A DNA stretch of 64,000 nucleotides from Massalongia carnosa. Taxonomy: Eukaryota. Positions 19 to 18,447 of the stretch are shown one piece after another (the stretch's first letter is position 1; each line of letters opens with the position of its first letter). A program made the position numbers and the translations under genes. The notes under the pieces are model-generated. The model ran no database searches. It was not told where the DNA came from and saw only the letters and a list, made by a program, of their open reading frames with translations. The stretch spans positions 682,001 to 746,000 of the forward strand of contig OZ287079.1 in assembly GCA_965645245.1 (NCBI GenBank). Direction: 5' to 3'.

Positions 19-1926
19 GTGGTCTCGTGCGAGATGGAGGTATCGAAGGTCACGCGTGCCAATAGCCCTGTCATTACGCGCAAGGTGATCCGCACGGCGA
101 AAGAGGCGGGCGGGGAGGAGCACAGGGCGTGCGTGGTGTACTGCTTACTGGTGTGCCATCGTTGGTTCCGGCGACAGGCGATGCTGGAGCTATGGGACGC
201 GGATTTACATAATCTAAGGGCGGTGGCGTGCGAGGTGCTTGCGAAGCAAATGTTTGTACAACCCTTTGCCTCCTAAGCTTCTTAAACCCCTTCAGGGCCT
301 CCCCCGCAAAACCAACCAGCTGCTAATTCTCCAAAAAGTATCGAACTCGAACCTGACCAAGACTTCCTTCTCTCCTCTCTCCTCCTCAAACGTTACTCCA
401 TCCTTGTGGGCTCCCACCCCACCAAACCCACTAACGTGGTTGAACGCGCCGTTGACCTCCATGCCCTACGCGTTATTGGCTCCGCCGGCTACCAGAAATG
501 CATTTCGCATCTCTGGCGCGGCTGGCTCGTGCAAGATGAAGCCGATTCAGCCAGCTTTGTTCCCTGGAGGGGCAAGGCTAAAACTGACTACTGGGCGCAC
601 TTCGACCCAAACCGCATGCGCTGCCCGCGATACCAGAATGCGGTACAGGTCTTCTTTAGCGTGCTCTTTTTGGCGCTTTACACGGGCGCTATCAATACGA
701 TTAATCGTAAGGGAGATTTGGATGTTGTGGAGGGGGTGTTATACGCGATGACGTTAGGATTCATGTGTGATGAAATAGCAAAATTCTGGAAAGTCGGCCG
801 GTACTACGTGGGCTTCTGGAACGTGTTCAATAGTACTCTGTACGTATTGCTAAGTGTATCCTTTGTCACGCGGATGATTGCTCTAGGCCACCCGGCCGGG
901 GAGAGAGAAAGGCGACGCTTCAACGAACTGAGCTATAATTTTCTCGCCTTCAGCGCGCCAATGTTCTGGATGCGGCTGCTGCTGTACCTAGACACGTTTC
1001 GGTTCTTCGGCGCTATGCTCGTGGTGCTGAAGGTCATGATGAAGGAGTCGTTGATATTTTTCGCGCTGCTGATCATTGTTATGGTGGGATTCCTGCAAGC
1101 GTTCATCGGCATGGACCAAGTAGACGATGATGCGCAGGTGACGAGTTTCATTTTACAGGCCATGGCCAACAGCGTAATGCAATCGCCAGATTTCACCGGG
1201 TTCGAGAAGTTTGCGCCGCCGTTTGGGATTATCTTGTATTATATCTTTACGTTTGTTGTTATGGTTGGTGAGTCAATCCCGTTAGATTTTTTGAAAGATG
1301 AGGACCTTTCGCCGGAAGCTGATCAGCGTAACAGTGCTGCTAAATATCCTCATTGCGCTATACAACAGCGCGTATGAAGATATTACCGAAAATGCCATTG
1401 ATGAATACATGGCTTTATTCTCGCAGAAAACCATGCAATTTGTCCGAGCTCCCGACGAAAATGTCTTCATCGCTCGTAAGCACGCACGAGAAGTTCATCT
1501 GTAACGAACCGAGGCAGGAAGCTAACAAAATTGGCAGCATTCAACCTGATTGAAATCTTCTGCCTGATACTACCTTTTGAATGGTGGATGTCGACCGCGC
1601 GCTATGAGCGTCTTAATAACCTGGTCATGGGCATCATCTACTCCCCCCTCCTCCTCATCACTGCCTACATCGAAACCAAACAAGCACACGTAGTCAAGGG
1701 CAACCGGTCACGCCACGAGCAGGACGACGACACCGTCGAGGAATGGGAGCAGATGCAATCGGATGTCGATTTTGAGGGGGAGGGCTGGGCGAAAAGAGTC
1801 GAGGCGACCAAGCCGAACATTGAGACGGACGCGGCGGTGTTGGAGGTCAGGGAGCTGAAGACGCAGGTCTCGGAGCTGAGGAAATTGGTGGAGGCGTGGA
1901 AGGGCGAGGTGAATGGCGGATCGTAA
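19..1926 (+). CDS. YVC1: Vacuolar TRP-type calcium channel (5' partial; exons ~19-251, 339-1267, 1335-1475, 1538-1926)
   Basis: Splicing at GT-AG introns (252-338, 1268-1334, 1476-1537) joins the ORFs into a multi-TM channel with motifs RACVVYCLL, AVDLHALRVIGS, LLNILIALYNSAY and FVRAPDENVFIAPFNLIE, typical of fungal Yvc1. Confidence 0.9.
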
Positions 1927-2148
1927 ATGATTGTACGATTGCGTTCTTGCATGCATCTTCGTAAACATGCCAATCTAGTGTCGGAAATTGCTATTCCGCT
2001 TTGTTTCTCGCCAGACTATCTGTACCTTGAATCGCCCTCTTTCTCCCGACGCACCTGACTCAAGATTACCCGAATTCCGGATGGATCCGACCGTCTGATT
2101 GCCTGCGTGTGCGCACGTGCTATTTTATTTGATAGCTACTTACTTCCA

Positions 2149-2171
2149 TTCATCATCATCATCATCATCAT
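2149..2171. repeat. (CAT)n microsatellite
   Basis: About 7 tandem CAT units. Confidence 0.8.
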
Positions 2172-2815
2172 CTCTCCTTGCCTGCTTATTTACTGCTTTT
2201 CTACCTACCTCCCTAGTACTCTCCCTAAGCGCCCCTACCTGCCTAACAAAAACCTTAGCCCGAAATCAAACAAAACCAAACGGACTGAATCCGCATACAT
2301 CCATGCATGCTGCTGCTAGATAACGTCTGCGTTGAGTGGGGCTACTACCTACGTCTCTAATCTACCTACACTTTTCGGGAAATTTCGGGAACTGAGAGAT
2401 TGGGGGTTCAATGGTTGGCGGGTTATGCAGTGGTTGGCGGGTTATGCTCAATGGGTGGCCTTGCTCCCTGCTGTGCGCTGAGGGCGGAAAGGGGCAATTA
2501 AGGTAAGCAAGGGCGGAGACTAAGCAAGAAAGAAAAACCACGGCAGATCAATGAGTTCACAACAAGAAAAAGTCGAGATGAAGAAAGAATTAGATTTGAT
2601 TACGGCTAAATACATGCTGATGCTACTTTACCGCAGCACCGATGTTCTGGAGCAGACCCGATAGCGGATTAAAGGCCAAGAATACACCGTGGAGGATTTT
2701 GGATAGAAACGATTGATATGTTAATCTTTTTAGATGAGAAGCGCCAGTAAGATGTCTTGCAAAAAACGCACGGCATGCTAGGCTCGCACGCCAGGATTTC
2801 CCAGTACGGAAGAGC

Positions 2816-4107
2816 CTAGCAGCCCGTCCCGACCCATGACCCGGCCGATCCGGTGGTAACAACTTTGGAGCAGGCCCCGCACTTCTTGATCTGTAGCGAT
2901 CCCATCTCGAACTTCAAGCTGTATACCTGGGCCGGATCGCAAGTTTTGCTCGCAGTAGGCGTGTAAACGGTAGTGGTGGGGAGGCCTAGCGTATTGAAGA
3001 GGTTGCGTGCGGTCCACACCTCGAAGAAGAGCTTACCGGCAACGCTGTCGAGTAAGTTGGCCGCCGAGTACTTGCTTGCCGCGATTTCCTTCTCGTACTT
3101 GTTGTCGCCGAACACGAACTTGGCCTGAATGGGAAGAAGTGAGGCATCAGCAAAAAAACGACTATTGGAGCGGGAAGTGCTCATGAGCGGAGTGAAACCC
3201 ATACCTCGCAAAGAGACTTCAGGTATCGGAGTTGGTATTGGTAGTCATAGTAGGCGAATGAAGACCACTGAGCGACTTGGCGGTATTGCGGGATGAGGAC
3301 ACGCACGAGGTCCTTGAAATCGGGGTTTCCTGGGCTGGACGGAGTGGCACGATACTTAGCGGCAGACTCCGGATTCTGCACATAAACTATGCGGTTATCG
3401 AGTACTGAAGCAACATTACCGTAGAGGGGAGGAAAGAACGAGCCATAGTGAATTTCAATGTCGTCTCGCTTGGCGAGGGAGCCATAAACCGGGTTTAAGA
3501 AAAAATCGATGTCCTGCGTTGTGGGAGAGCTGTCTTGACCGTTGATCAATTGAGCGATGTCATAGGCCCTACTCAACATCGGAATGGCGGCTGCGGCAAA
3601 CAAAGTGCAGCTATCCTTTGGCAACATCTTCTGGAACCACTTCTGGAGCTCCTTGGTAGAGGTGACGTTCTTTTGGGCTGCAGTGGATAAGACTGTGTCA
3701 ACCAGCATCGGAACTCCTTGCTTCACCAAGTCTGGAACAGTTTTTTTGTCCGCGACGAGCTGGTTCAGAAGATATGGCAAAGATTCTTCCGCGTAGCCAG
3801 TAAGCTCCTTCTTGAAATCGACACCCTTTTGGCTCGGGGTGTTCTCAGGGATACCGATAAGGATAATCCAGGTTGGCTTGTCCAGGAAAATCCCTTCACC
3901 ATCAATCCTAAAGGTTGGATCAACGCAATAAGGATCACATGGACGTGATGGAGCTACAGGATCTGGAGGAGTGATCAGGAACCGAGATTCACAGCCCGGG
4001 TCGTCCGCCGCACAATAACCATTGTCAGGGATAGGGCTCCCGGTTACGGATGGAGCGAGAAGCTGGGAGAGGAAAAGCAAGGTTGAAATGGAAGTGACGC
4101 TTCGCAT
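2816..4107 (-). CDS. Secreted hypothetical protein (~400 aa; exons 4107-3205, 3124-2816), possibly a degenerate DUF4157/zincin-like domain
   Basis: Hydrophobic signal-peptide-like N-terminus (MRSVTSISTLLFLSQLLAPSVTG). A GTATGG..GCTGAT..CAG intron at 3204-3125 joins the 308-aa and 131-aa ORFs in frame. Cys residues cluster near both termini. Confidence 0.7.
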
Positions 4108-10723: not shown

Positions 10724-11022
10724 TTTGTAAGTTTAGCAGAATGAAATCATTCACGTCATCTAATGGTGCAGCGCATTAGAAGATATAAGAAAAAGTAAGG
10801 GAATAGATGTCATGGACTCGACATCTTAGTAGCCTGAAGCCAGGAAAGGTTCAAGTATGTGTCCAGAGAAATTTAGGGAAACTCCGCCACAACCTCCGCG
10901 GCAGGGTGTTTTTCCGATGATACTCTTAGCGCTTATATGGCGCAGCACTTAGCACGTGCCTTGTATTGTATCGCTAGCTTGATTTTGTGTCACAGGTTCG
11001 CGTTTTGTAGTTATCTCAAGAC

Positions 11023-11197
11023 CACTGTAACAAACACGCACCCGGATATTTTCTCAGCATACCCGTAACCATACCCGAGTATAAATACCCGGTTATTACT
11101 CGAATACTCGAAAATTGATACTCGTACCCGTACCTGGATATTTACCCAGGTATTATCCGGGTAATACCCGGGTATGGGTAAAAGGTTGGTTACAGTG
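11023..11197. mobile_element. hAT-type MITE (175 bp)
   Basis: TIRs CACTGTAAC / GTTACAGTG. Flanking 8-bp direct repeat CTCAAGAC / CTCAATAC (1 mismatch). Many internal TACCCG/CGGGTA subterminal repeats. Confidence 0.7.
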
Positions 11198-11236
11198 CTC
11201 AATACTCTGTACTATCGGGCTTTTCGGCTCTCAGTA

Positions 11237-12842
11237 CGGAGGATGACACAGGAAGTTCTGGCCGACGCTAATATGCACGCTAAATAAGCCACCTACAAGG
11301 GCCTCAGCCCTACGAAGATAAACTCCTTTATTTACTCCTTTTTTACCTTCTTATCCACCTCCTCATCAGTCTACATTGGCCCACTCCTCCTCATCTTCAG
11401 TAGGACCTCTCTTTGAACGCAGATATCGACTGCGCCGCTCCTCAGCATCGTAAGGTCGTACCATTCCTCCTGTCCTTCCTTCTCTGTACTCGTTTCCTCC
11501 TTCTAATTCAATGACAGTCTGTATGTGACGAGGCATTCTCTCTATCCAGCTTTGTATTTGCTCTGCGATAGCTCGTCCCAACATTCAGTCCATGCTACTT
11601 CGGCCTCCCGTCTGCTTCGTGGAGCTCCGAGGAGGGTCGTACGTCTTTTCATCCAAGGCCAGCATGGTTCAATCATGTTGAGATCAGGTGAGTTGCCAGG
11701 CCACAAAAAGCGAAGCACTCGAAAGTCCATAAACACCACATCCTGATGTTTGGAGGTATGACAGGGGGCCTTATCTTCTTGAACCACCGTGTTTGGACGA
11801 TCTTTCATGCATTCGGTAGCGAATGGAAGAAGTTTGTCTATCAAAATATTCTTTTGATAGCGATACCAGTCAATTCCTCCCTTTTTATTATCTCGCACGA
11901 TCTTTCCATGTTTTTGATCCCATATCCATCGAGGCTGTCGTCCTCCTGGATTTCTTAGTCTCATTCGTCTCATTCCATTTTCTAACTCCCAATTGAGCTT
12001 CGCCTCTGATCCCAACCTCTTATTGATAAGCTTCAGCTCTTCCTCGGCTGCCTTCTTTTCTTTTGCAGACTCAGTCTTCCAGATATGAAAAGGACCTTTT
12101 TTATCGTACGAGAAACACCCCCAAAACATGAACTCTGAGTGTCCTTTCCATCGACGACGAATGCATGTTTTATCATTCATTTCTTTCGAGGTTCTCCATT
12201 GCAGTCTTCTTCCTCTTACTGTATTCAGCATCACGCTCGTCTCGTCACTCCAGATGACGTTCTTCCAGTCTTCAAGAGTCCAATGCTGATGATCAATGCA
12301 AAATTTCAGACGTGCTTCCTTCATGATCGAAGTAAGGCCAGGCTTTTTCGTTGATTTACAGGCTCGAAATCCATTCTTTTTAAGAACCTTCAATATAGTG
12401 GAAGAACTCAGCTCATGATCAAAAGCCAGCATAGCTGAAGACTTCTCCCTTTCGTTTCGATCTTTGCGTACATCAGTCAATATAGCCTCCTCCAATGCAG
12501 GTGTTACTTTAGAAGGTTGGCCTGAACGAGGTGCATCTTCAACATATTCCATCTTCAAGACTCGTGAGATCTCGGGATCATATCCTCTGCTTCTTGCTTT
12601 CTTCTTGATATGACTGATAGATCTCGTCGAGACTTCAGTGATTTCCTCTACTCTTTTAGCTGATACTCCATGCTCTACGAGAGTCAAGGCCTGAAGTCTT
12701 TGAGCGAGAGTCAGTGTGTTATCTTGAGGACGAGTCATGATGATGATAGCTATAAAATATCAACTAAAATCAACTATAAATTACAAATATTGAAGCATTT
12801 TATCTCTTGATGCCCGGAGAACCTCCTTTTTTTAAATTATTA
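11237..12842 (-). mobile_element. Tc1/mariner (DD34E) half-element, left arm; transposase 12738-11366 with a 1-nt frameshift near 11565
   Basis: HTH plus WSDET, QEDKAP and NSPDLNMIE motifs, with 34 residues between D2 and E. Outer TIR CGGAGGATGACACAGGAAGTTC preceded by TA. No inner TIR. Confidence 0.9.
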
Positions 12843-15800
12843 TTATTATTATTATTAAATTCATACTCGTTGTGACATCAGCTATAGCCGACCCATGCGA
12901 GAAAAGCTATCAAAGTTTCAAAGAAGGAAAACCCTCATCGAGGGGAAAAAACCTTCATCTGTATACCTACACGTGATCGCTCGACCTCACTTCGCGAATG
13001 CTACGTTTCGCCAGCGCCACATCTACGACACACATGCGTATCAAGAGACTACCTTCTGCCTCTGTTATAACTAGAGTTTGTGACTATCACTACGCGACAG
13101 TCAGGGGGAGGAAGAAAGACACTCTACAGCTAGCGAAAACTGTGTCAGTAGATTAGTCCGCATAAGCCAGCGAGCGGAGGCTCGTAAGCCCTTTTCGGTG
13201 GTCAGAAGGCGGCGATAATCCGTCGTTCCGGCGTCTCTGCACATGTTGCTTCGGCCGTTAACAAACCTGGGGCAGCTGAGTAGCACATACTTGAGCGTCT
13301 GGCGTGCCCATCCACAGCTACACGCCGGCGAAGCGAACGTGGGAACTCGACGAGAGAAGAGATAATCCGCCAAGCCAATACGCTCAGTACGCATTTGAAT
13401 GATGAGGCTGCTTTCGGATTTGCTGAAGTTCTTATGTAATCCCAGTCTCTTTATCGAAAGACCCTCAGTAAGCGCAGCGCAGGGATGACGCTGATGAGCC
13501 GCCTGATACGCGCTCCAGGTCTGTTTCCACTGATTGTTGAAGATCTTGGCTAGCCCTCTGTCCGTCGGAATGTCCTCTATCATGTCAGCAGGCCGGACTC
13601 GAGCAATCTGCCTCGTATACCAGTCACGCTTACGCTGAGCCGGCGTAGCGTTGAGGGCGCGCCGTCGTCTACCGCGCGAGGCAGTCAGCTTGCGCTTGAT
13701 CTTCTCACAGAAAGCGGAGATGCGTTGATCGTGTTCATGTTCTTTAAGACGTCGTCGTGCCTTCGCCTGCAAGTGAGCTAGATGCAGCTGAATTGGAGAA
13801 ACGTGAGTTTCGGCTTCGATGATGATTTGCGGAGTAGCGCGAAATCCTCCGCTTATCACTCGCAGACACTCTCGCTGTATGTCACCGAGCTGTTTGTCGA
13901 TCCTCTGCGTGCCGTCGGGACGGCCATATGGCGAATGCCAGACGGTAGAGCCGAAGGTAATCGCCGGTCGCACGACGGCGCTATAAACGTGTCTCGCCTT
14001 CGTAAAGCACGCTCCCCACGTAGAAGCCGTAAGCCTGGATAATGCCAAGGTCTGTGTAGCCATTTTACCCTGTATGAACTTTAGATGAGGCCCCCATTTA
14101 AGCTTGGAGTCGATCTGAATTCCAAGCACTCGCACCGACGGCGAAGGCGTCTTGTCCACGCCTCCTATGCACACGGCAGCCGTCATGTCGAAGCGACGAT
14201 CATTTCTGGCGAGATGTAGGAGCTCGTATTTAGCAGGCGCGAAGTGCGCTCCATGACGTCTAGCCCACAGCTCGCACATCTCGTGAGCACGTTCTAAAGC
14301 TCGACAGTTACTCTCAGTCGAGGTGCCGTATGCCAGTATATTGATGTCGTCAATAAACCCCAACGCGGTGACTTTGAGTCGAGATCGCTCTAGCTCCTCC
14401 AAAATATCTGCGTTGTAAAAAATGTAGAGAATGGGCGACACTGGCGACCCCTGCGGTATACCGGCATGAACAAGGCGCATCGAAGACGTCTGACCGCCGA
14501 TTGTCAGTGTGGACCTTCTTTGCTGTAAAAAGCTGCCGACCCATGCTACGATCCATTCAGGAATTTTTCTCTTGCGCAGATTGTGCAGCATTCTCTCCGC
14601 CGAGACGTGATCAAAGGCACCGGCCACATCAATGCTCAAAAGCGTGGCCACTTGTCTGACCCCATGTTCCACACCGTGTGTATCTGTTCGGTGAGGAGTT
14701 CAAGCGCCGTTTCACAGGATCTTTGTCGTCGTCCTCCCATCTGAGACTCAGGAAGCAGATTGTGGGTCTCCGCAATAGCGGCGATGCGTTTAGCTATGAT
14801 CGATTCCAAGACCTTCCCAAGCGTATTCAGAAGCGCGATAGGTCTATAGGCCTTAGCGAGAGTGTAGTTCGGCTTGTTCGGCTTCTTGATTGCAATAGTG
14901 TGAGCCTCGCGAAAGCAGAGTGGGTGATACCCCTGCTCTGCGCAGGCGCGAAACAGAAGGACCAACGTGGGCAGTATCGACTTGATCAGAAGCTTGAGTA
15001 TTCTATTCGGTATTCCGTCGGGGCCCGGAGCAGAGTCCGGCTTACAACGCTTGATTGCTGCCTCTATCTCCTCGCCTGTGATAAGAGACTCCGTTTCTGC
15101 GACAGCGGGAGGGTAGCGATACGTCGTCGTGGCGCTGAGGTCTGCCGCGGTTGCATTGGGGAAGAACATGTCAAAGAGAAGAGACGCCTTTTCGTCGAAT
15201 GTGGACGCAGTGACTGCTGTGCCGTCCGCAAGCGTGTGCGTCAGATCGGGCACCTTGGGAATGTCTCGCGGTAAGTGACTGCGCGTACGAGCCCATCGAG
15301 CAAGACGCCATATGCCTTCGGACGCAGACGTCATCTCTGCTAAGGTTCTTCTGAAGTCGAGCTTCTTCTCCTTGGTGATGATCTTCTTCTTTTCATCCGC
15401 CGATTTGAGATACCTGCGCCACGTTGCCTCTGTCTTCCACCTCGTCCACTCGCGTCTTCGACGTCGAGTCTCCGCCACAGCGACAGCGCAACGCTCGTTC
15501 CAGAAGGGTTTGGAGACGGGGCAGGGAGCCGTCCAGGGAATGGTCTCATTTATCGCGTCAATAATGGCGGACTGTAGTCGATTCGCTAAGTCGTCTATGG
15601 CTTGCGGGGTACGCGGCCACTCCGTGACTACAGGTAGACGAAGACTTTTCGCCAGATTTTCTTCGTCGGCTCGCTTCCATGCTCTCTTGCGACGTTCCAC
15701 GCTCAGCTCCACCTCTAGCGTCAGCTTGGTAGAGACGGGTATGTGATCGGACGATTGGTTCATCTCCGGACGGGTGTGACAGTGCAGCAGACTGTGTCTC

Positions 15801-16757
15801 AGGGAGTCGGTCATGAACACTAGGTCTATCGTGCTCGTGGATCTGCGTGCCTCCCAAGTGACAGAGCCACTAGGTAGAGTGAGCTGCATAGACGCCGCAC
15901 GAACGACGTCGAGAAGCTGGTCGGCCGCTTGATGTTGTGTAGGCCTGGAGGGGCCACTCCACAGAGGGTGATGCAGATTAAAGTCTCCCAGCAAGATGTG
16001 TTCCTCTTCATCCCGCTCATGAATCTTTCGTCTCACCGCCTCCACGCTTTCGAGTAGCTGGCGAGAAGAATGCGAGTCGGGTGATTGACTGTAGACGTTA
16101 TGTATATTGATGTATCGTGGCTCATTACTCGCAGATATTCTTAGTCTCATTGTGCACACGTCCGGCGTGAGGAAGTCCACAGCCTAAGAATTGACATCCA
16201 ATCTTTTATTAATATAGAAACACGCACGTACATTCTCATTCGACATAAACGCAAGATGAAAGCCGGAATTGAACGGATTGTGCGACGTGCAAATGCTGGG
16301 GTTGCGCCATGGTTCCTGAATGGCTAAGACGTCATACTCCTCTATTCTCTTGTCCGCCAGTAGAGGGGTCATGACCCCGTTCTTGCTCTTTCTGATGTTA
16401 TACTGTAATATTGAAAGAGATGTTTGTCCCGCCATTACTGGGTACTTCGGGAGACTTTGCCGCTGATTCTGTGAAGCGGCGGGCGGCCGCGCTTCGGCTT
16501 GGGCTGTGGCTGCGTCTGCGAATGCGCCTTCGGCGCCGGAGGAGGCATGGGGTAACGAAGGAGTGCAAGGGCGCTGTCAGACCTATGAGAAGACGAGGCC
16601 GGCTGTGAGTCAGGTACAACCGACACGCTGGCTCTGCGCCTAGTAGGAGATGGCGAGGAGCCTTCTCCAGGTCCCTGCGAGTGTGCCCTCTTGCCGTGTG
16701 TAGAGGGGAGAGCCGGAAAGCTGTTGGTGACTGTATTAATGTCGAGGCTCATAATCG
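12843..16757 (-). mobile_element. 5'-truncated Tad1-like LINE: ORF1 C-terminal remnant (16757-16435) and ORF2 APE-RT (16435-13101) with an in-frame stop at 16184 and a frameshift near 14650; (TAA)n tail
   Basis: APE motifs QYNIRK, AIQEPW, LGDFNLHH and SDH. RT motifs PGPDGI, YRPIALL, GIPQGSPVSP and FIDD. C-terminal CxC..C knuckle. (TTA)n at 12837-12856. 14-bp TSD TTTTTAAATTATTA at 12829-12842 and 16758-16771. Confidence 0.92.
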
Positions 16758-18224
16758 TTTTTAAATTATTACCACTAGACAAGGGCGTGGTAAAATTTTT
16801 AAAAAAAGGTTCTCCGGGCATCAAGAGATAAAATGCTTTAATATTTGTAATTAATAGTTGATTTTAGTTGGTATTTTGTAGCTATCATCATCATGACTCG
16901 TCCTCAAGATAACACACTGACTCTCGCTCAAAGACTTCAGGCCTTGACTCTCGTAGAGCATGGAGTATCAGCCAAAAGAGTAGAGGAAATCACTGAAGTC
17001 TCGACAAGATCTATCAGTCATACCAAGAAGAAAACAAGAAGCAGAGGATATGATCCCGAGATCTCACGAGTCTTGAAGATGGAATATGTTGAAGATGCAC
17101 CTCGTTCAGGCCAACCTTCTAAAGTAACACCTGCATTGGAGGAGGCTATATTGACTGATGTACGCAAAGATCGAAACGGAAGGGAGAAGTCTTCAGCTAT
17201 GCTGGCTTTTGATCATGAGCTGAGTTCTTCCACTATATTGAAGGTTCTTAAAAAGAATGGATTTCGAGCCTGTAAATCAACGAAAAAGCCTGGCCTTACT
17301 TCGATCATGAAGGAAGCACGTCTGAAATTTTGCATTGATCATCAGCATTGGACTCTTGAAGACTGGAAGAACGTCATCTGGAGTGACGAGACGAGTGTGA
17401 TGCTGAATGCAGTAAGAGGGAAAAGACTGCAATGGAGAACCTCGAAAGAAATGAATGATAAAACATGCATTCGTCGTCGATGGAAAGGACACTCAGAGTT
17501 CATGTTTTGGGGGCGTTTTCGTACGATAAAAAAGGTCCTTTTCATATCTGGAAGACTGAGTCTGCAAAAGAAAAGAAGACAGCTGAGGAAGAGCTGAAGC
17601 TTATCAATAAGAGGTTGGAATCAGAGGCGAAGCTCAATTGGGAGTTAGAAAATGGAATGAGACGAATGAGACTAAGAAATCCAGGAGGACGACAGCCTCG
17701 ATGGATATGGGATCAAAAACCTGGAAAGATCGTGCGAGATAATAAAAAGGGAGGAATTGACTGGCATCGCTATCAAAAGAATATTTTGATAGACAAACTT
17801 CTTCTATTCGCTACCGAATGCATGAAAGATCGTCCAAATATGGTGGCTCAAGAAGATAAGGCCCCCTGTCATACCTCTAAACATCAGGATGTGGTGTTTA
17901 TGGACTTTCGAGTGCTTCTCTTTTTGTGGCCTAGCAACTCACCTGATCTCAACATGATTGAACCGGAACGAGTACAGAGAAGGAAGAACAGGAGGAATGG
18001 TACGACCTTACGATGCTGAGGAGCGGCGCAGTCGATATCTGCGTTTAAAGAGAGGTCCTACTGAAGATGAGGAGGAGTGGGCCAATGTAGACTGATGAGG
18101 AGGTGGATTAGAAGGTAAAAAAGGAGTAAATAAAGGAGTTTATCTTCGTAGGGCTGAGCCCCTTGTAGGTGGCTTATTTAGCGTGCATATTAGCGTCGGT
18201 TAGAACTTCCTGTGTCATCCTCCG
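16758..18224 (+). mobile_element. Tc1/mariner (DD34E) half-element, right arm; transposase from 16893, frameshifted near 17515, with a ~170-bp deletion near 17965
   Basis: Near-identical inverted copy of 11237-12842. Ends GAACTTCCTGTGTCATCCTCCG followed by TA. Confidence 0.9.
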
Positions 18225-18447
18225 TACAGAGTACATACAACCCCATCGATGACTCTAGCATTAACTTACCTCTCTCCCTACCGAATAAATCTCTCATTCA
18301 TCTAAGCTAGGAAGACCAGGAAAATTTTACATGACTAATTGTTACTCTTAGAATGTACAATTCATGAAACCTCGTTATATCAATCTATTCTCAGATTATT
18401 CCCAATAAGTTCTTATAACATTAAAGACAATAACATAAATAGACATC

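Follow-up and report, generated by a model that had tools for sequence, protein, structure and literature searches.

An inverted pair of Tc1-type elements without inner ends around a later LINE in Massalongia carnosa

Anatomy of the inverted pair and its LINE insert

The DNA between positions 11237 and 18224 of the window (the window being the whole stretch of 64,000 nt of Massalongia carnosa DNA that was analysed) holds two Tc1-type (DD34E) elements in inverted, head-to-head orientation, separated by a LINE. The pair lies in the divergent promoter region of its two flanking genes, which were assigned with Pfam to a P5A-ATPase and a Gln-tRNA synthetase. The left arm (11237..12842, minus strand; 1,606 nt) is an element of the ancestral, undeleted type without its 5' end, and the right arm (16772..18224, plus strand; 1,453 nt), which also has no 5' end, is of a lineage defined by a 169-bp deletion. 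The arms are 97.5% identical over 1,420 aligned nt, and the inverted repeat that they form comprises three segments in colinear order (718, 460, and 278 nt), which are 98, 96, and 95% complementary. Globally aligned, the arms span 1,590 columns with 1,385 matches, 35 mismatches (30 transitions and 5 transversions), and 170 gap columns, which stem from a segment of 169 nt and a single base that the right arm lacks. A 3-nt insertion near 12825 is private to the left arm. The inverted-repeat segments and the alignment bear out an earlier note on this DNA, which had described a mirror-image structure with two transposases reading outward.

Both outer ends of the pair are 3' ends of the element. 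The terminal 20-mer CGGAGGATGACACAGGAAGT has exactly two matches in the window at up to three mismatches (0.00 expected), in inverted orientation at the two outer ends (11237..11256, plus strand; 18205..18224, minus strand), and each is bordered by a TA (11235..11236 on the left, 18225..18226 on the right), beyond which the similarity of the arms decays. The earlier note was thus right that the symmetry stops at the TA and that the outward-facing ends are those of two "right halves" (3' ends). Its claim of the same TIR at both ends holds for the identical 20-mer plus TA, but because both are 3' ends their identity says nothing about how long the TIR is. With a TA at each outer end and the empty site not seen, duplication of the TA is presumed. 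The canonical layout of a single gene between one 5' and one 3' TIR is absent; the locus is a rearranged derivative with two genes and missing 5' ends, not a canonical Tc1-like member. Assignment to the Foldback (FB-type) elements was rejected, as there are no long termini of tandem subrepeats (only small arrays of 16-32 nt, 10 of them listed) and the arms are coding.

Each arm contains a transposase pseudogene, the left one at 11366..12738 (minus strand) and the right one at 16893..18095 (plus strand). The left frame is open from the ATG at 12738 to 11545, encoding 398 aa identical to the protein P0132, and then shifts; one base that is present in other copies is missing after 11562. The right gene has lost one base after 17518 as well as the 169-bp segment, whose deletion junction (17964/17965) falls directly past the catalytic E. 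Among Pfam domains, HTH_Tnp_Tc3_2 is found in both arms (8.1e-13 in the left, 4.6e-13 in the right), and DDE_3, for which the Pfam cut-off is 28.6 bits, scores above it on the left (34.7 bits, 1.9e-08) and below it on the right (24.9 bits, 2e-05). The catalytic residues of the left pseudogene, D165, D322, and E357, which were placed by motif rather than by structural alignment, give D..D..E spacings of 156 and 34, the latter being that of the DD34E class. The earlier reading of a DD34E transposase in each arm therefore stands for the domains and the spacing, but not for working genes: because of the frameshifts in both arms and the deletion in the right, both transposase genes are pseudogenes and the element is not autonomous.

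The non-LTR (LINE) retrotransposon between the arms occupies 12843..16757 on the minus strand and encodes an endonuclease and a reverse transcriptase (Pfam Exo_endo_phos_2, 2.9e-20; RVT_1, 3.9e-21). A (TAA)n tail lies at its low-coordinate end, and an (ATT)7 array was detected. The LINE is 5'-truncated, other copies continuing past 16758, and the other copies have one extra base after 14651. Its target-site duplication consists of two identical 14-nt copies of TTTTTAAATTATTA, the left one (12829..12842) inside the left arm and the right one (16758..16771) constituting, by sequence, the inner tip of that same arm. Since the duplication sits inside the left arm, the LINE was a later arrival than the pair, as had been claimed.

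The centre of the pair and the support for the locus

Removal of the LINE and one copy of its duplication gives a centre (16772..16790, plus strand) composed of CCAC (16772-16775), TAGACAAGGGC (16776-16786), and GTGG (16787-16790), and by these coordinates the reconstruction in the earlier note was correct. The 11-nt asymmetric spacer TAGACAAGGGC is kept once between CCAC and GTGG. Family copies elsewhere match from 16772 rightward, which identifies the centre as native sequence of the right-arm element; contigs from runs X2 and X5 show this match and then continue leftward with 27 and 16 other letters, respectively. The X2/X5 motif upstream of CCAC has 0 matches in the window at up to three mismatches, and the terminal 20-mer matches at the outer ends only, with no inner match in the window. 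The earlier statement that neither arm has an inner TIR is confirmed on both counts. From the X5 contig at 11256, the outermost 20 nt seem to be common to the 5' and 3' ends of the family.

Independent short-read contigs from the flanks, in runs X1, X4, and the diverged X2, confirm both outer junctions; X2 comes from a separate study and has a flank that differs from the window by 7 other letters and 14 gap letters. A contig at approximately single-copy depth joins two family ends across 22 other letters in 4/4 runs; family copies do land side by side. The locus itself is a relic, dead and apparently single-copy, that has become fixed in at least two diverged strains. The usual thresholds for RIP are a TpA/ApT ratio above 0.89 and a (CpA+TpG)/(ApC+GpT) ratio below 1.03. 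TpA/ApT is 0.61 and 0.66 in the two arms (flanks 0.78) and (CpA+TpG)/(ApC+GpT) is 1.40 and 1.36 (flanks 1.21-1.22), so that, by dinucleotide indices, the arms have no signature of the RIP that the earlier note had suggested.

Kinship of the two arms

Other family copies, taken from other contigs of a collection regarded as the window's own assembly, were compared with the arms as proteins. Five of these copies bear the deletion: P0001, P0121, P0130, P0131, and P0133, whose contigs are of four lengths in all. The right arm and 5/5 deletion-bearing copies have the same deletion frame, ending in ...NMIEPERVQRRKNRRNGTTLRC, and all have K177, T230, L305, M317, and S348, as well as N at a sixth site, within the deletion frame, where the left arm has D. 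At residues 177, 230, 305, and 317, the left arm, P0125, and three outgroups have R, A, P, and T; at 348, the left arm and the outgroups have G (P0125 is unaligned there). The left and right arms differ at 14/356 residues, compared with 6/345 for the left arm and P0125 and 10/356 for the right arm and P0130. When the deletion frame is removed, the tree groups the deletion copies and the right arm together (support 86/95), and the AU test rejects a clade of left and right arms (lnL lower by 26.6, p 0.0021). No residue unique to the two arms together was found among the compared copies.

In these protein comparisons, the arms appear not as sisters but as members of different branches of the Tc1-type family, the left copy being of the ancestral undeleted type and the right an apparently early member of the non-autonomous 169-bp-deletion lineage. 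Fold-back from one element by hairpin-primed replication, as proposed in the earlier note, is in that form contradicted by the AU test and by the deletion and five residues that tie the right arm, not the left, to other copies. The evidence points instead toward what that note had set against its own proposal, namely two independent elements with loss of the DNA between them, although later gene conversion could rescue a fold-back. At residue 264, the right arm has P and 5/5 other deletion copies have S, so that the right arm is basal among them; this position also fits the right arm as founder of the deletion lineage. T44 is common to the right arm, P0125, and P0130 in a pattern that no tree explains, which implies exchange among copies or recurrent change in the family. 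Furthermore, the lineage markers are confined to residues 177-348 and just past, and the first 176 residues, being free of markers, leave room for a conversion tract.

Origin of the pair and comparison with known systems

The explanation that we prefer, and to which we assign about an even chance, is that two different family copies lay head to head, lost both 5' ends in a central break, and were rejoined at a 4-nt inverted microhomology. Two copies would have come to lie head to head at one TA or at neighbouring TAs, generating a near-palindrome of 3.4 kb that would then have broken at its centre, as such structures do; two separate insertions are what we infer, neither the empty site nor an intermediate having been seen. 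Since the resected tails would be identical rather than complementary, pairing would be possible only where the element itself contains a short inverted repeat, and the CCAC of one tail would have paired with the GTGG of the other. Trimming of the flaps (a loss of at least 27 nt, tentatively about 66 nt from the right copy and about 81 nt from the left) would have removed both 5' ends and left a junction that is nearly symmetric around an asymmetric spacer of 11 nt; 14 nt to the left of this centre, the 5'-truncated LINE later inserted. The anatomy, the loss of the inner ends, the separate lineages of the arms, and the late arrival of the LINE are shown by the sequences; what we infer is the succession of events and how the break was repaired. 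Inverted repeats as short as this one do take part in break repair, as with a 5-bp repeat with a 35-bp spacer in wild-type yeast (PMC10622511).

Such a fused pair is more likely than one element folded back on itself because the two halves belong to different family branches; the junction itself does not favour it, as fold-back priming also predicts a native CCAC/GTGG with a small spacer. A single element copied outward by fold-back or template switching, with arms born identical and one of them later changed by gene conversion, is a doubtful but still appreciable alternative, since ectopic gene conversion on a palindrome of single origin could yield the same lineage pattern. The copying might have begun at a break near the 5' end, with the 3' end GTGG folding onto CCAC 11 nt away, or during gap repair after excision, with the nascent strand leaving the left terminal repeat for the right one, in which case the seemingly common outer 20 nt would let the mis-templated strand anneal across the gap. 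Fold-back priming at equally short repeats is documented (PMC10622511), a MITE made of two inverted copies of one Tc1/mariner subterminal region is known and is attributed to inverted microhomology with template switching in gap repair (PMC3814204), T44 hints at exchange among copies, and conversion of the left arm by an ancestral-type donor would explain P264 in both arms. The position of the junction at a native 4-nt inverted repeat, with the spacer kept once, agrees with such copying but is unspecific: 213 inverted repeats of 4 nt with spacers of 3-35 nt occur in the right arm, so that one more is no special mark. Sister arms, moreover, are what the AU test rejects, and although conversion could mask sisterhood, six substitutions and the 169-bp indel would require one tract of at least about 570 nt, for which none of the five deletion copies could be the donor to the right arm, because all carry S264. 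The lack of any residue restricted to the two arms likewise speaks against a common origin.

There is a slim chance that the pair is instead a natural, mobile "sandwich" that arrived by its two 3' ends or founded the 169-bp-deletion lineage as dimers. An equally slim chance attaches to the fuller version, in which the sandwich moves or moved as a unit and founded a deletion lineage of cargo-carrying palindromic dimers, P0001 and P0131 being the arms of a second dimer. These two copies differ at 2/358 residues and are both recorded with a longest contig of 1,860,977 bases, probably the same contig; P0133, a deletion copy, and P0129, an ancestral-type fragment, are both recorded with one of 2,849,552 bases. 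Two inverted elements with unusable inner ends and cargo between them are indeed what the locus contains, the right arm is basal to the other deletion copies, the terminal 20-mers are identical, and an engineered Sleeping Beauty sandwich transposes well (PMC4229213), a precedent that makes mobilisation as one unit, which the earlier note had raised, conceivable by analogy. The TA at both outer ends, however, is equally expected from formation in place, no contig in 4 runs links the arms across the centre without the LINE (though contig sets may be incomplete), neither the centre nor the end was matched when metagenome contigs were scanned, some copies have different DNA upstream of CCAC, and the private states of the left arm (e.g., at 12222 and 12658) are absent from multi-copy contigs. 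Least probable of all, and very improbable, is a false palindrome assembled from a chimeric or fold-back long read. None of the short-read contig rows shown bridges the centre or either LINE junction, which leaves the centre to the window's assembly, and three of the five runs (X1, X3, and X4) belong to a single study under a single organism label and perhaps include the window's source. Artefactual fold-backs give identical arms, whereas these differ at 35 sites and by indels of 169, 3, and 1 nt; the 14-nt LINE duplication is perfect, with a right copy of left-arm-type sequence directly abutting CCAC; and each outer junction, which has its own unique flank, is confirmed, in X2 as well.

On the preferred reading of two fused copies, the locus would be a clean natural example of two cut-and-paste elements ending 5' to 5', and of a kilobase-scale palindrome that survived after the loss of its symmetry centre in the promoter region common to two housekeeping genes. 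Near symmetry of a junction at a short inverted repeat is by itself no proof of fold-back replication, because a broken palindrome, once rejoined, is expected to bear an identical scar; it is the lineage markers of the arms that discriminate between the two. Were the mobile-unit explanation true, the engineered sandwich would have its natural equivalent in this locus, and Tc1 elements a route by which to transport cargo. As it stands, this dead, apparently single-copy relic is of modest interest.

Two inverted element copies bound a segment in the composite bacterial transposons Tn10 and Tn5 and in the maize "double Ds," in which one element is inserted in another. Those copies keep both ends, unlike the two copies here, which have no inner ends. 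Centre-break revision, in which the loss of a few bases from the symmetry centre stabilises a long palindrome, is mentioned in PMC3300023, with Cunningham et al. 2003 as the reference; it is not known from transposon pairs or from this organism, but may have acted here. Fold-back inversions and palindromic duplications near breaks resemble the locus in having a short inverted-repeat centre with the spacer kept once, but, as described, they run into the chromosome and need a second stabilising event (PMC10622511), whereas here the symmetry stops at the element ends and TA and the arms appear not to be sisters. The Goblin MITE (from the Tc1/mariner element Ozma) and the Tc7 and PALTA families are similar in consisting of inverted copies of the same end joined at inverted microhomology, Goblin being ascribed to aberrant gap repair with template switching; by that account they are miniature, non-coding, and multi-copy, in contrast to the near-whole, gene-bearing arms of two apparent lineages at this seemingly single-copy locus (PMC3814204). 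The closest analogue is the Sleeping Beauty sandwich, an engineered construct reported as two complete elements placed head to head with their inner ends disabled (PMC4229213). The natural locus differs from it in that the inner ends have been physically deleted instead of mutated, the outer ends are 3' ends on both sides, the two transposase genes are dead, the LINE cargo came afterwards, and nothing was found that points to movement as a unit, but the two are alike in being a Tc1-family pair around cargo in which only the outer ends are cuttable.

Structure and setting of the inverted pair

The left arm (11237-12842) carries its Tc1-type transposase gene on the minus strand and the right arm (16772-18224) on the plus strand, so that both genes read outward from the centre. 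A repeat finder returned the arms as three inverted segments in colinear order, 718 nt (98%), 460 nt (96%) and 278 nt (95%) long. Their global alignment spans 1,590 columns, with 1,385 matches, 35 mismatches (30 transitions and 5 transversions) and 170 gap columns, all of which stand for bases that the right arm lacks: a stretch of 169 nt (11497-11665 in the left arm) and one further base. Near the centre, a 3-nt insertion is private to the left arm, which also differs by a few changes within an A/T-rich run. The outward ends of both arms are identical, and the terminal 20 nt are found at two places only in the window (two matches at up to 3 mismatches, 0.00 expected). A TA lies directly outside each outer end, the likeness of the arms decays past it, and the abutting host flanks read ...CTCTCAG-TA on the left and TA-CAGAGTAC... 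on the right. The inverted segments and the identical terminal 20-mers bear out the palindromic head-to-head Tc1 pair, with the same outer end plus TA, described in the earlier note. When each part was compared with the whole window by blastn, the arms matched only each other and a second LINE copy was not found; the arms contain no FB-type subrepeats. In the 3' untranslated part of each arm a 12-nt unit (ACTCCTTTTTT-like) is repeated 2.2 times (window 11321 and 18115-18139), and a copy in sequencing run X5 has one more such unit, ACTCCTTTATTT, inserted behind 11321.

The flanks encode a P5A-ATPase N-terminus on the minus strand and, on the plus strand, a class I Glu/Gln tRNA synthetase; the pair therefore occupies a divergent promoter region. 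A short repeat-rich block (11020-11200), some 35 nt off the left end, contains inverted repeats nested in one another and 2.9 copies of an 11-nt unit, TACCCGGGTAA. Its depth is about 5 times that of the flank in runs X1 and X4, contigs of other copies begin at 11083, and it is possibly a MITE.

Both arms contain the Pfam domain HTH_Tnp_Tc3_2; only the left arm clears the threshold for DDE_3, the right arm scoring 24.9 bits where 28.6 are needed. The catalytic residues are D165, D322 and E357, with 34 residues separating the last two. In the left arm the frame stays open through 398 codons before it shifts; other copies, in contigs of all four runs compared, have an extra base after 11562 that restores ...QIQSWIERMPRHIQ.... 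The right gene lacks one base after 17518, where X1 contigs have an extra C, and carries a 169-bp deletion immediately past the catalytic E. Judged from their reading frames, both transposase genes are dead. Relatives number 950 proteins at E 0.001 or better, of 4,795 candidates. The few named matches come from Paecilomyces, Cladobotryum, Fusarium and Pyrenophora, and by protein likeness the family belongs to the Pezizomycotina.

The 3.9-kb LINE between the arms (12843-16757, minus strand) has endonuclease and RVT_1 (Pfam) domains, an (ATT)n run at its low-coordinate end, and two identical copies of TTTTTAAATTATTA as a bounding target duplication. The right-hand TTTTTAAATTATTA copy is left-arm-type sequence; the LINE thus entered the left arm, 14 nt off centre, once the inverted pair existed. 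It is a 5'-truncated copy, since contigs of other copies continue past 16758 in X1, X2 and X4, and it lacks one base that other copies carry after 14651. Against multi-copy X1 contigs it shows, for example, 4 letter differences and 1 gap over 1,523 nt, and 4 letter differences over 1,144 nt. Given so few differences, this copy is much younger than the arms, and its family looks recently active in these genomes.

Five sequencing runs from three studies match the window stretch, and contigs of four (X1, X2, X4 and X5) were compared. Three of the five, X1, X3 and X4, come from a single study under a single organism label, and the source of the window may be among them; one of the five runs is labeled as a lichen metagenome. 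At the left outer junction, long flank contigs enter the element by 26 nt (to 11262) in X1, X2 and X4; at the right, flank contigs enter by 55 nt (X1, X4) or 23 nt (X2). X2 comes from a separate study, and its left-flank contig departs from the window at 7 letters plus 14 gap letters. Because the junctions recur beside a differing flank, the insertion is common to diverged strains, old and fixed. In X1 the depth of arms and LINE is 459-3,992 against 134-147 for the flanks, and across runs the excess is several-fold to tens-fold; depth does not equal copy number, and the raised values indicate that both families are multi-copy. No contig match among those listed crosses the centre (with the LINE or free of it), a junction of the LINE on either side, or an empty site (11236 to 18225). 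This speaks neither for nor against the structure, so the centre rests on the assembly of the window. A palindrome or centre falsely created by assembly is nevertheless hardly credible, as the arms differ at 35 sites and three indels, the LINE target duplication is perfect, and contigs verify both unique flanks.

The arms show the opposite of a RIP signature by the usual RIP index thresholds. TpA/ApT is 0.61 and 0.66 in the arms and 0.78 in the flanks; (CpA+TpG)/(ApC+GpT) is 1.40 and 1.36 in the arms and 1.21-1.22 in the flanks. Also against RIP, several of the polarised changes run from T to C or from A to G, directions foreign to it. The RIP proposed earlier thus finds no footing here, and the 30:5 excess of transitions is ordinary decay. 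Extrusion of a cruciform from duplex DNA is unlikely now, with 3.9 kb of LINE between the arms.

The centre and its missing inner ends

The centre consists of CCAC, TAGACAAGGGC and GTGG (16772-16790). Contigs of X2 and X5 match the right arm from the CCAC at 16772 rightward and have other DNA to its left: in X2 a 27-letter stretch that ends ...GCTTGCATTAGCTTCCG, and in X5 16 of those letters. Since contigs of other copies match from CCAC on, CCAC-spacer-GTGG is native to the element, and the left arm was joined exactly there. At least 27 nt are missing at the centre. The absence of any inner TIR, as claimed in the earlier note, holds, for the terminal 20-mer lies at the outer ends only and the motif ...GCTTGCATTAGCTTCCG upstream of CCAC has no occurrence in the window. 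In X5, another contig follows the element's outer 20 nt as far as 11256 before departing as CCTTGGTAGCGCGCATTAGTGCTATTTTAG, whose final 8 letters overlap the start of the 27-letter X2 stretch. If these pieces join, by an 8-letter overlap between two runs, the canonical 5' end would tentatively comprise about 66 nt as far as CCAC, and the shortfall would be about 66 nt in the right arm and about 81 nt in the left.

The central spacer was also considered as a remnant of an inner repeat like the outer end, a reading rejected because its local alignment with the 3' end is no better than that of shuffles (1,002 of 2,000 reach the observed score in reverse complement and 560 of 2,000 in direct orientation). 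The likeness by eye of GCCCTTGTCTAGTGG and GCCCCTTGTAGGTGG is only a lead. The bare CCAC/GTGG stem has a folding energy of -0.8 kcal/mol; that of the centre fold is about -41.6 kcal/mol, an approximate value because the slice used extends to 12840, 2 bases short of the end of the left arm at 12842. The right arm contains 213 inverted repeats of 4 nt with spacers of 3-35 nt, so such a repeat is no distinctive mark.

Two lineages in one pair

Other copies of the family were compared as proteins and through the run contigs. Fifteen proteins make up the 90% cluster of the best protein match. All are ENA records from contigs 1.27-3.63 Mb long, and one of them, P0132, is identical to the left ORF; on this account the assembly behind the cluster is taken to be that of the window. 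Five of the 15 (P0001, P0121, P0130, P0131 and P0133, here called deletion copies) end in ...NMIEPERVQRRKNRRNGTTLRC, the out-of-frame reading made by the 169-bp deletion of the right arm. Among 74 variable columns, K177, T230, L305, M317 and S348 are common to the right arm and all five deletion copies. At the first four of these sites the left arm, the family protein P0125 and the outgroups P0002, P0007 and P0003 have R, A, P and T; at the fifth the left arm and outgroups have G, and P0125 is unaligned. The deletion-frame site is N in the right arm and the deletion copies and D in the left arm. No column is exclusive to the two arms. These lineage markers are confined to the stretch from residue 177 through the first bases past the deletion. 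Residue 264 is P in the right arm and S in all five deletion copies, so the right arm branches first within the deletion lineage. Left and right arms differ at 14 of 356 residues and the left arm and P0125 at 6 of 345; the right arm differs from P0130 at 10 of 356 and from P0121 at 8 of 218.

The tree comprised 15 rows, all cut at ...NMIE so that the deletion was no character; six short cluster members (P0122, P0126-P0129 and P0134) were left out and the outgroups P0002, P0003, P0005, P0007 and P0010 added. The right arm groups with the deletion copies (support 86/95, not starred), and an AU test rejects a clade of left and right arms (lnL lower by 26.6, p 0.0021). By the residues and the tree alike, the arms are not sisters. 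T44 is found in the right arm and in P0125 and P0130, a distribution at odds with every tree, which indicates exchange or recurrent change in the family, and the private residue changes of the arms (3 versus 5) are too few for dating. A case for sister arms from rare bases at 12394 and 12541, unlike every contig placed there in the four runs, was dropped because those contigs included ones fitting the right arm and no listed match covered the corresponding right-arm sites; both states may be common in the family. The deletion-type proteins P0001 and P0131 differ at 2 of 358 residues and have many private states in common. They are probably on the same contig (both are recorded with a longest contig of 1,860,977 bases) and may represent a local duplication or a second inverted pair.

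Origin of the pair and known systems

Any account must explain both why the near-symmetric junction falls on a 4-nt inverted repeat native to the element and why the arms belong to two lineages. An origin from two source elements, one per lineage, placed head to head and then deprived of their centre, has about an even chance of being correct. A copy from each lineage would have ended up with its 5' end facing that of the other, either at neighbouring TAs or with the second copy in the TA beside the first, and the 3.4-kb palindrome so formed would have broken at its centre. The resected 3' tails, being the same in sequence, could pair only at an inverted repeat inside the element. With CCAC of one tail paired to GTGG of the other and the flaps removed, the spacer would be kept once and both 5' ends lost, which would give exactly the observed junction. 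Revision of palindromes by a centre break is mentioned in PMC3300023. In all four runs compared, a contig at roughly single-copy depth (140, 34, 815 and 13) links two ends of the family, with 22 other letters (24 in X2) in between; its right-type end follows the window to 18235, 9 nt past the TA, and its left-type end follows it from 11233. Two family ends would thus face each other elsewhere, about 37 nt apart and sharing about 9 flank letters with this locus, which suggests that copies of the family land side by side.

Derivation from one source element, by fold-back priming at CCAC/GTGG or by a left-to-right terminal-repeat switch while the gap left by excision was being repaired, accounts for the junction just as well; the same junction is predicted and the 4-nt repeat is not distinctive, so the junction cannot separate the two readings. 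Wild-type yeast used a 5-bp repeat with a 35-bp spacer for such priming (PMC10622511), and a template switch of this kind is proposed for the Goblin MITE (PMC3814204). A single source, however, makes identical arms. Six substitutions and the 169-nt indel would therefore have had to arrive later in a conversion tract of at least about 570 nt, and a single-tract donor among the five deletion copies is excluded, as all have S264; conversion of the left arm by an ancestral-type (undeleted) copy would still serve. The fold-back of one element in the earlier note accordingly fits the junction but, with arms that are not sisters (AU p 0.0021), would need conversion as well. On present sequence comparisons it is the lineage markers that decide between the readings, and they favour two source elements; one source is a rather doubtful alternative. 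Very improbable is a pair that moved as a unit or founded the deletion lineage; scans of metagenome contigs gave 0 loci for the 19-nt centre and 0 for an 18-nt end.

The inverted pair is a real, neatly readable, single-copy dead relic. No natural full-length head-to-head Tc1 pair without both inner ends was found in a literature search covering few subscription journals. Palindromic derivatives of one element end are already known among Tc1/mariner MITEs (PMC3814204). The engineered Sleeping Beauty sandwich (PMC4229213) consists of two head-to-head elements with dead inner ends that move as one.
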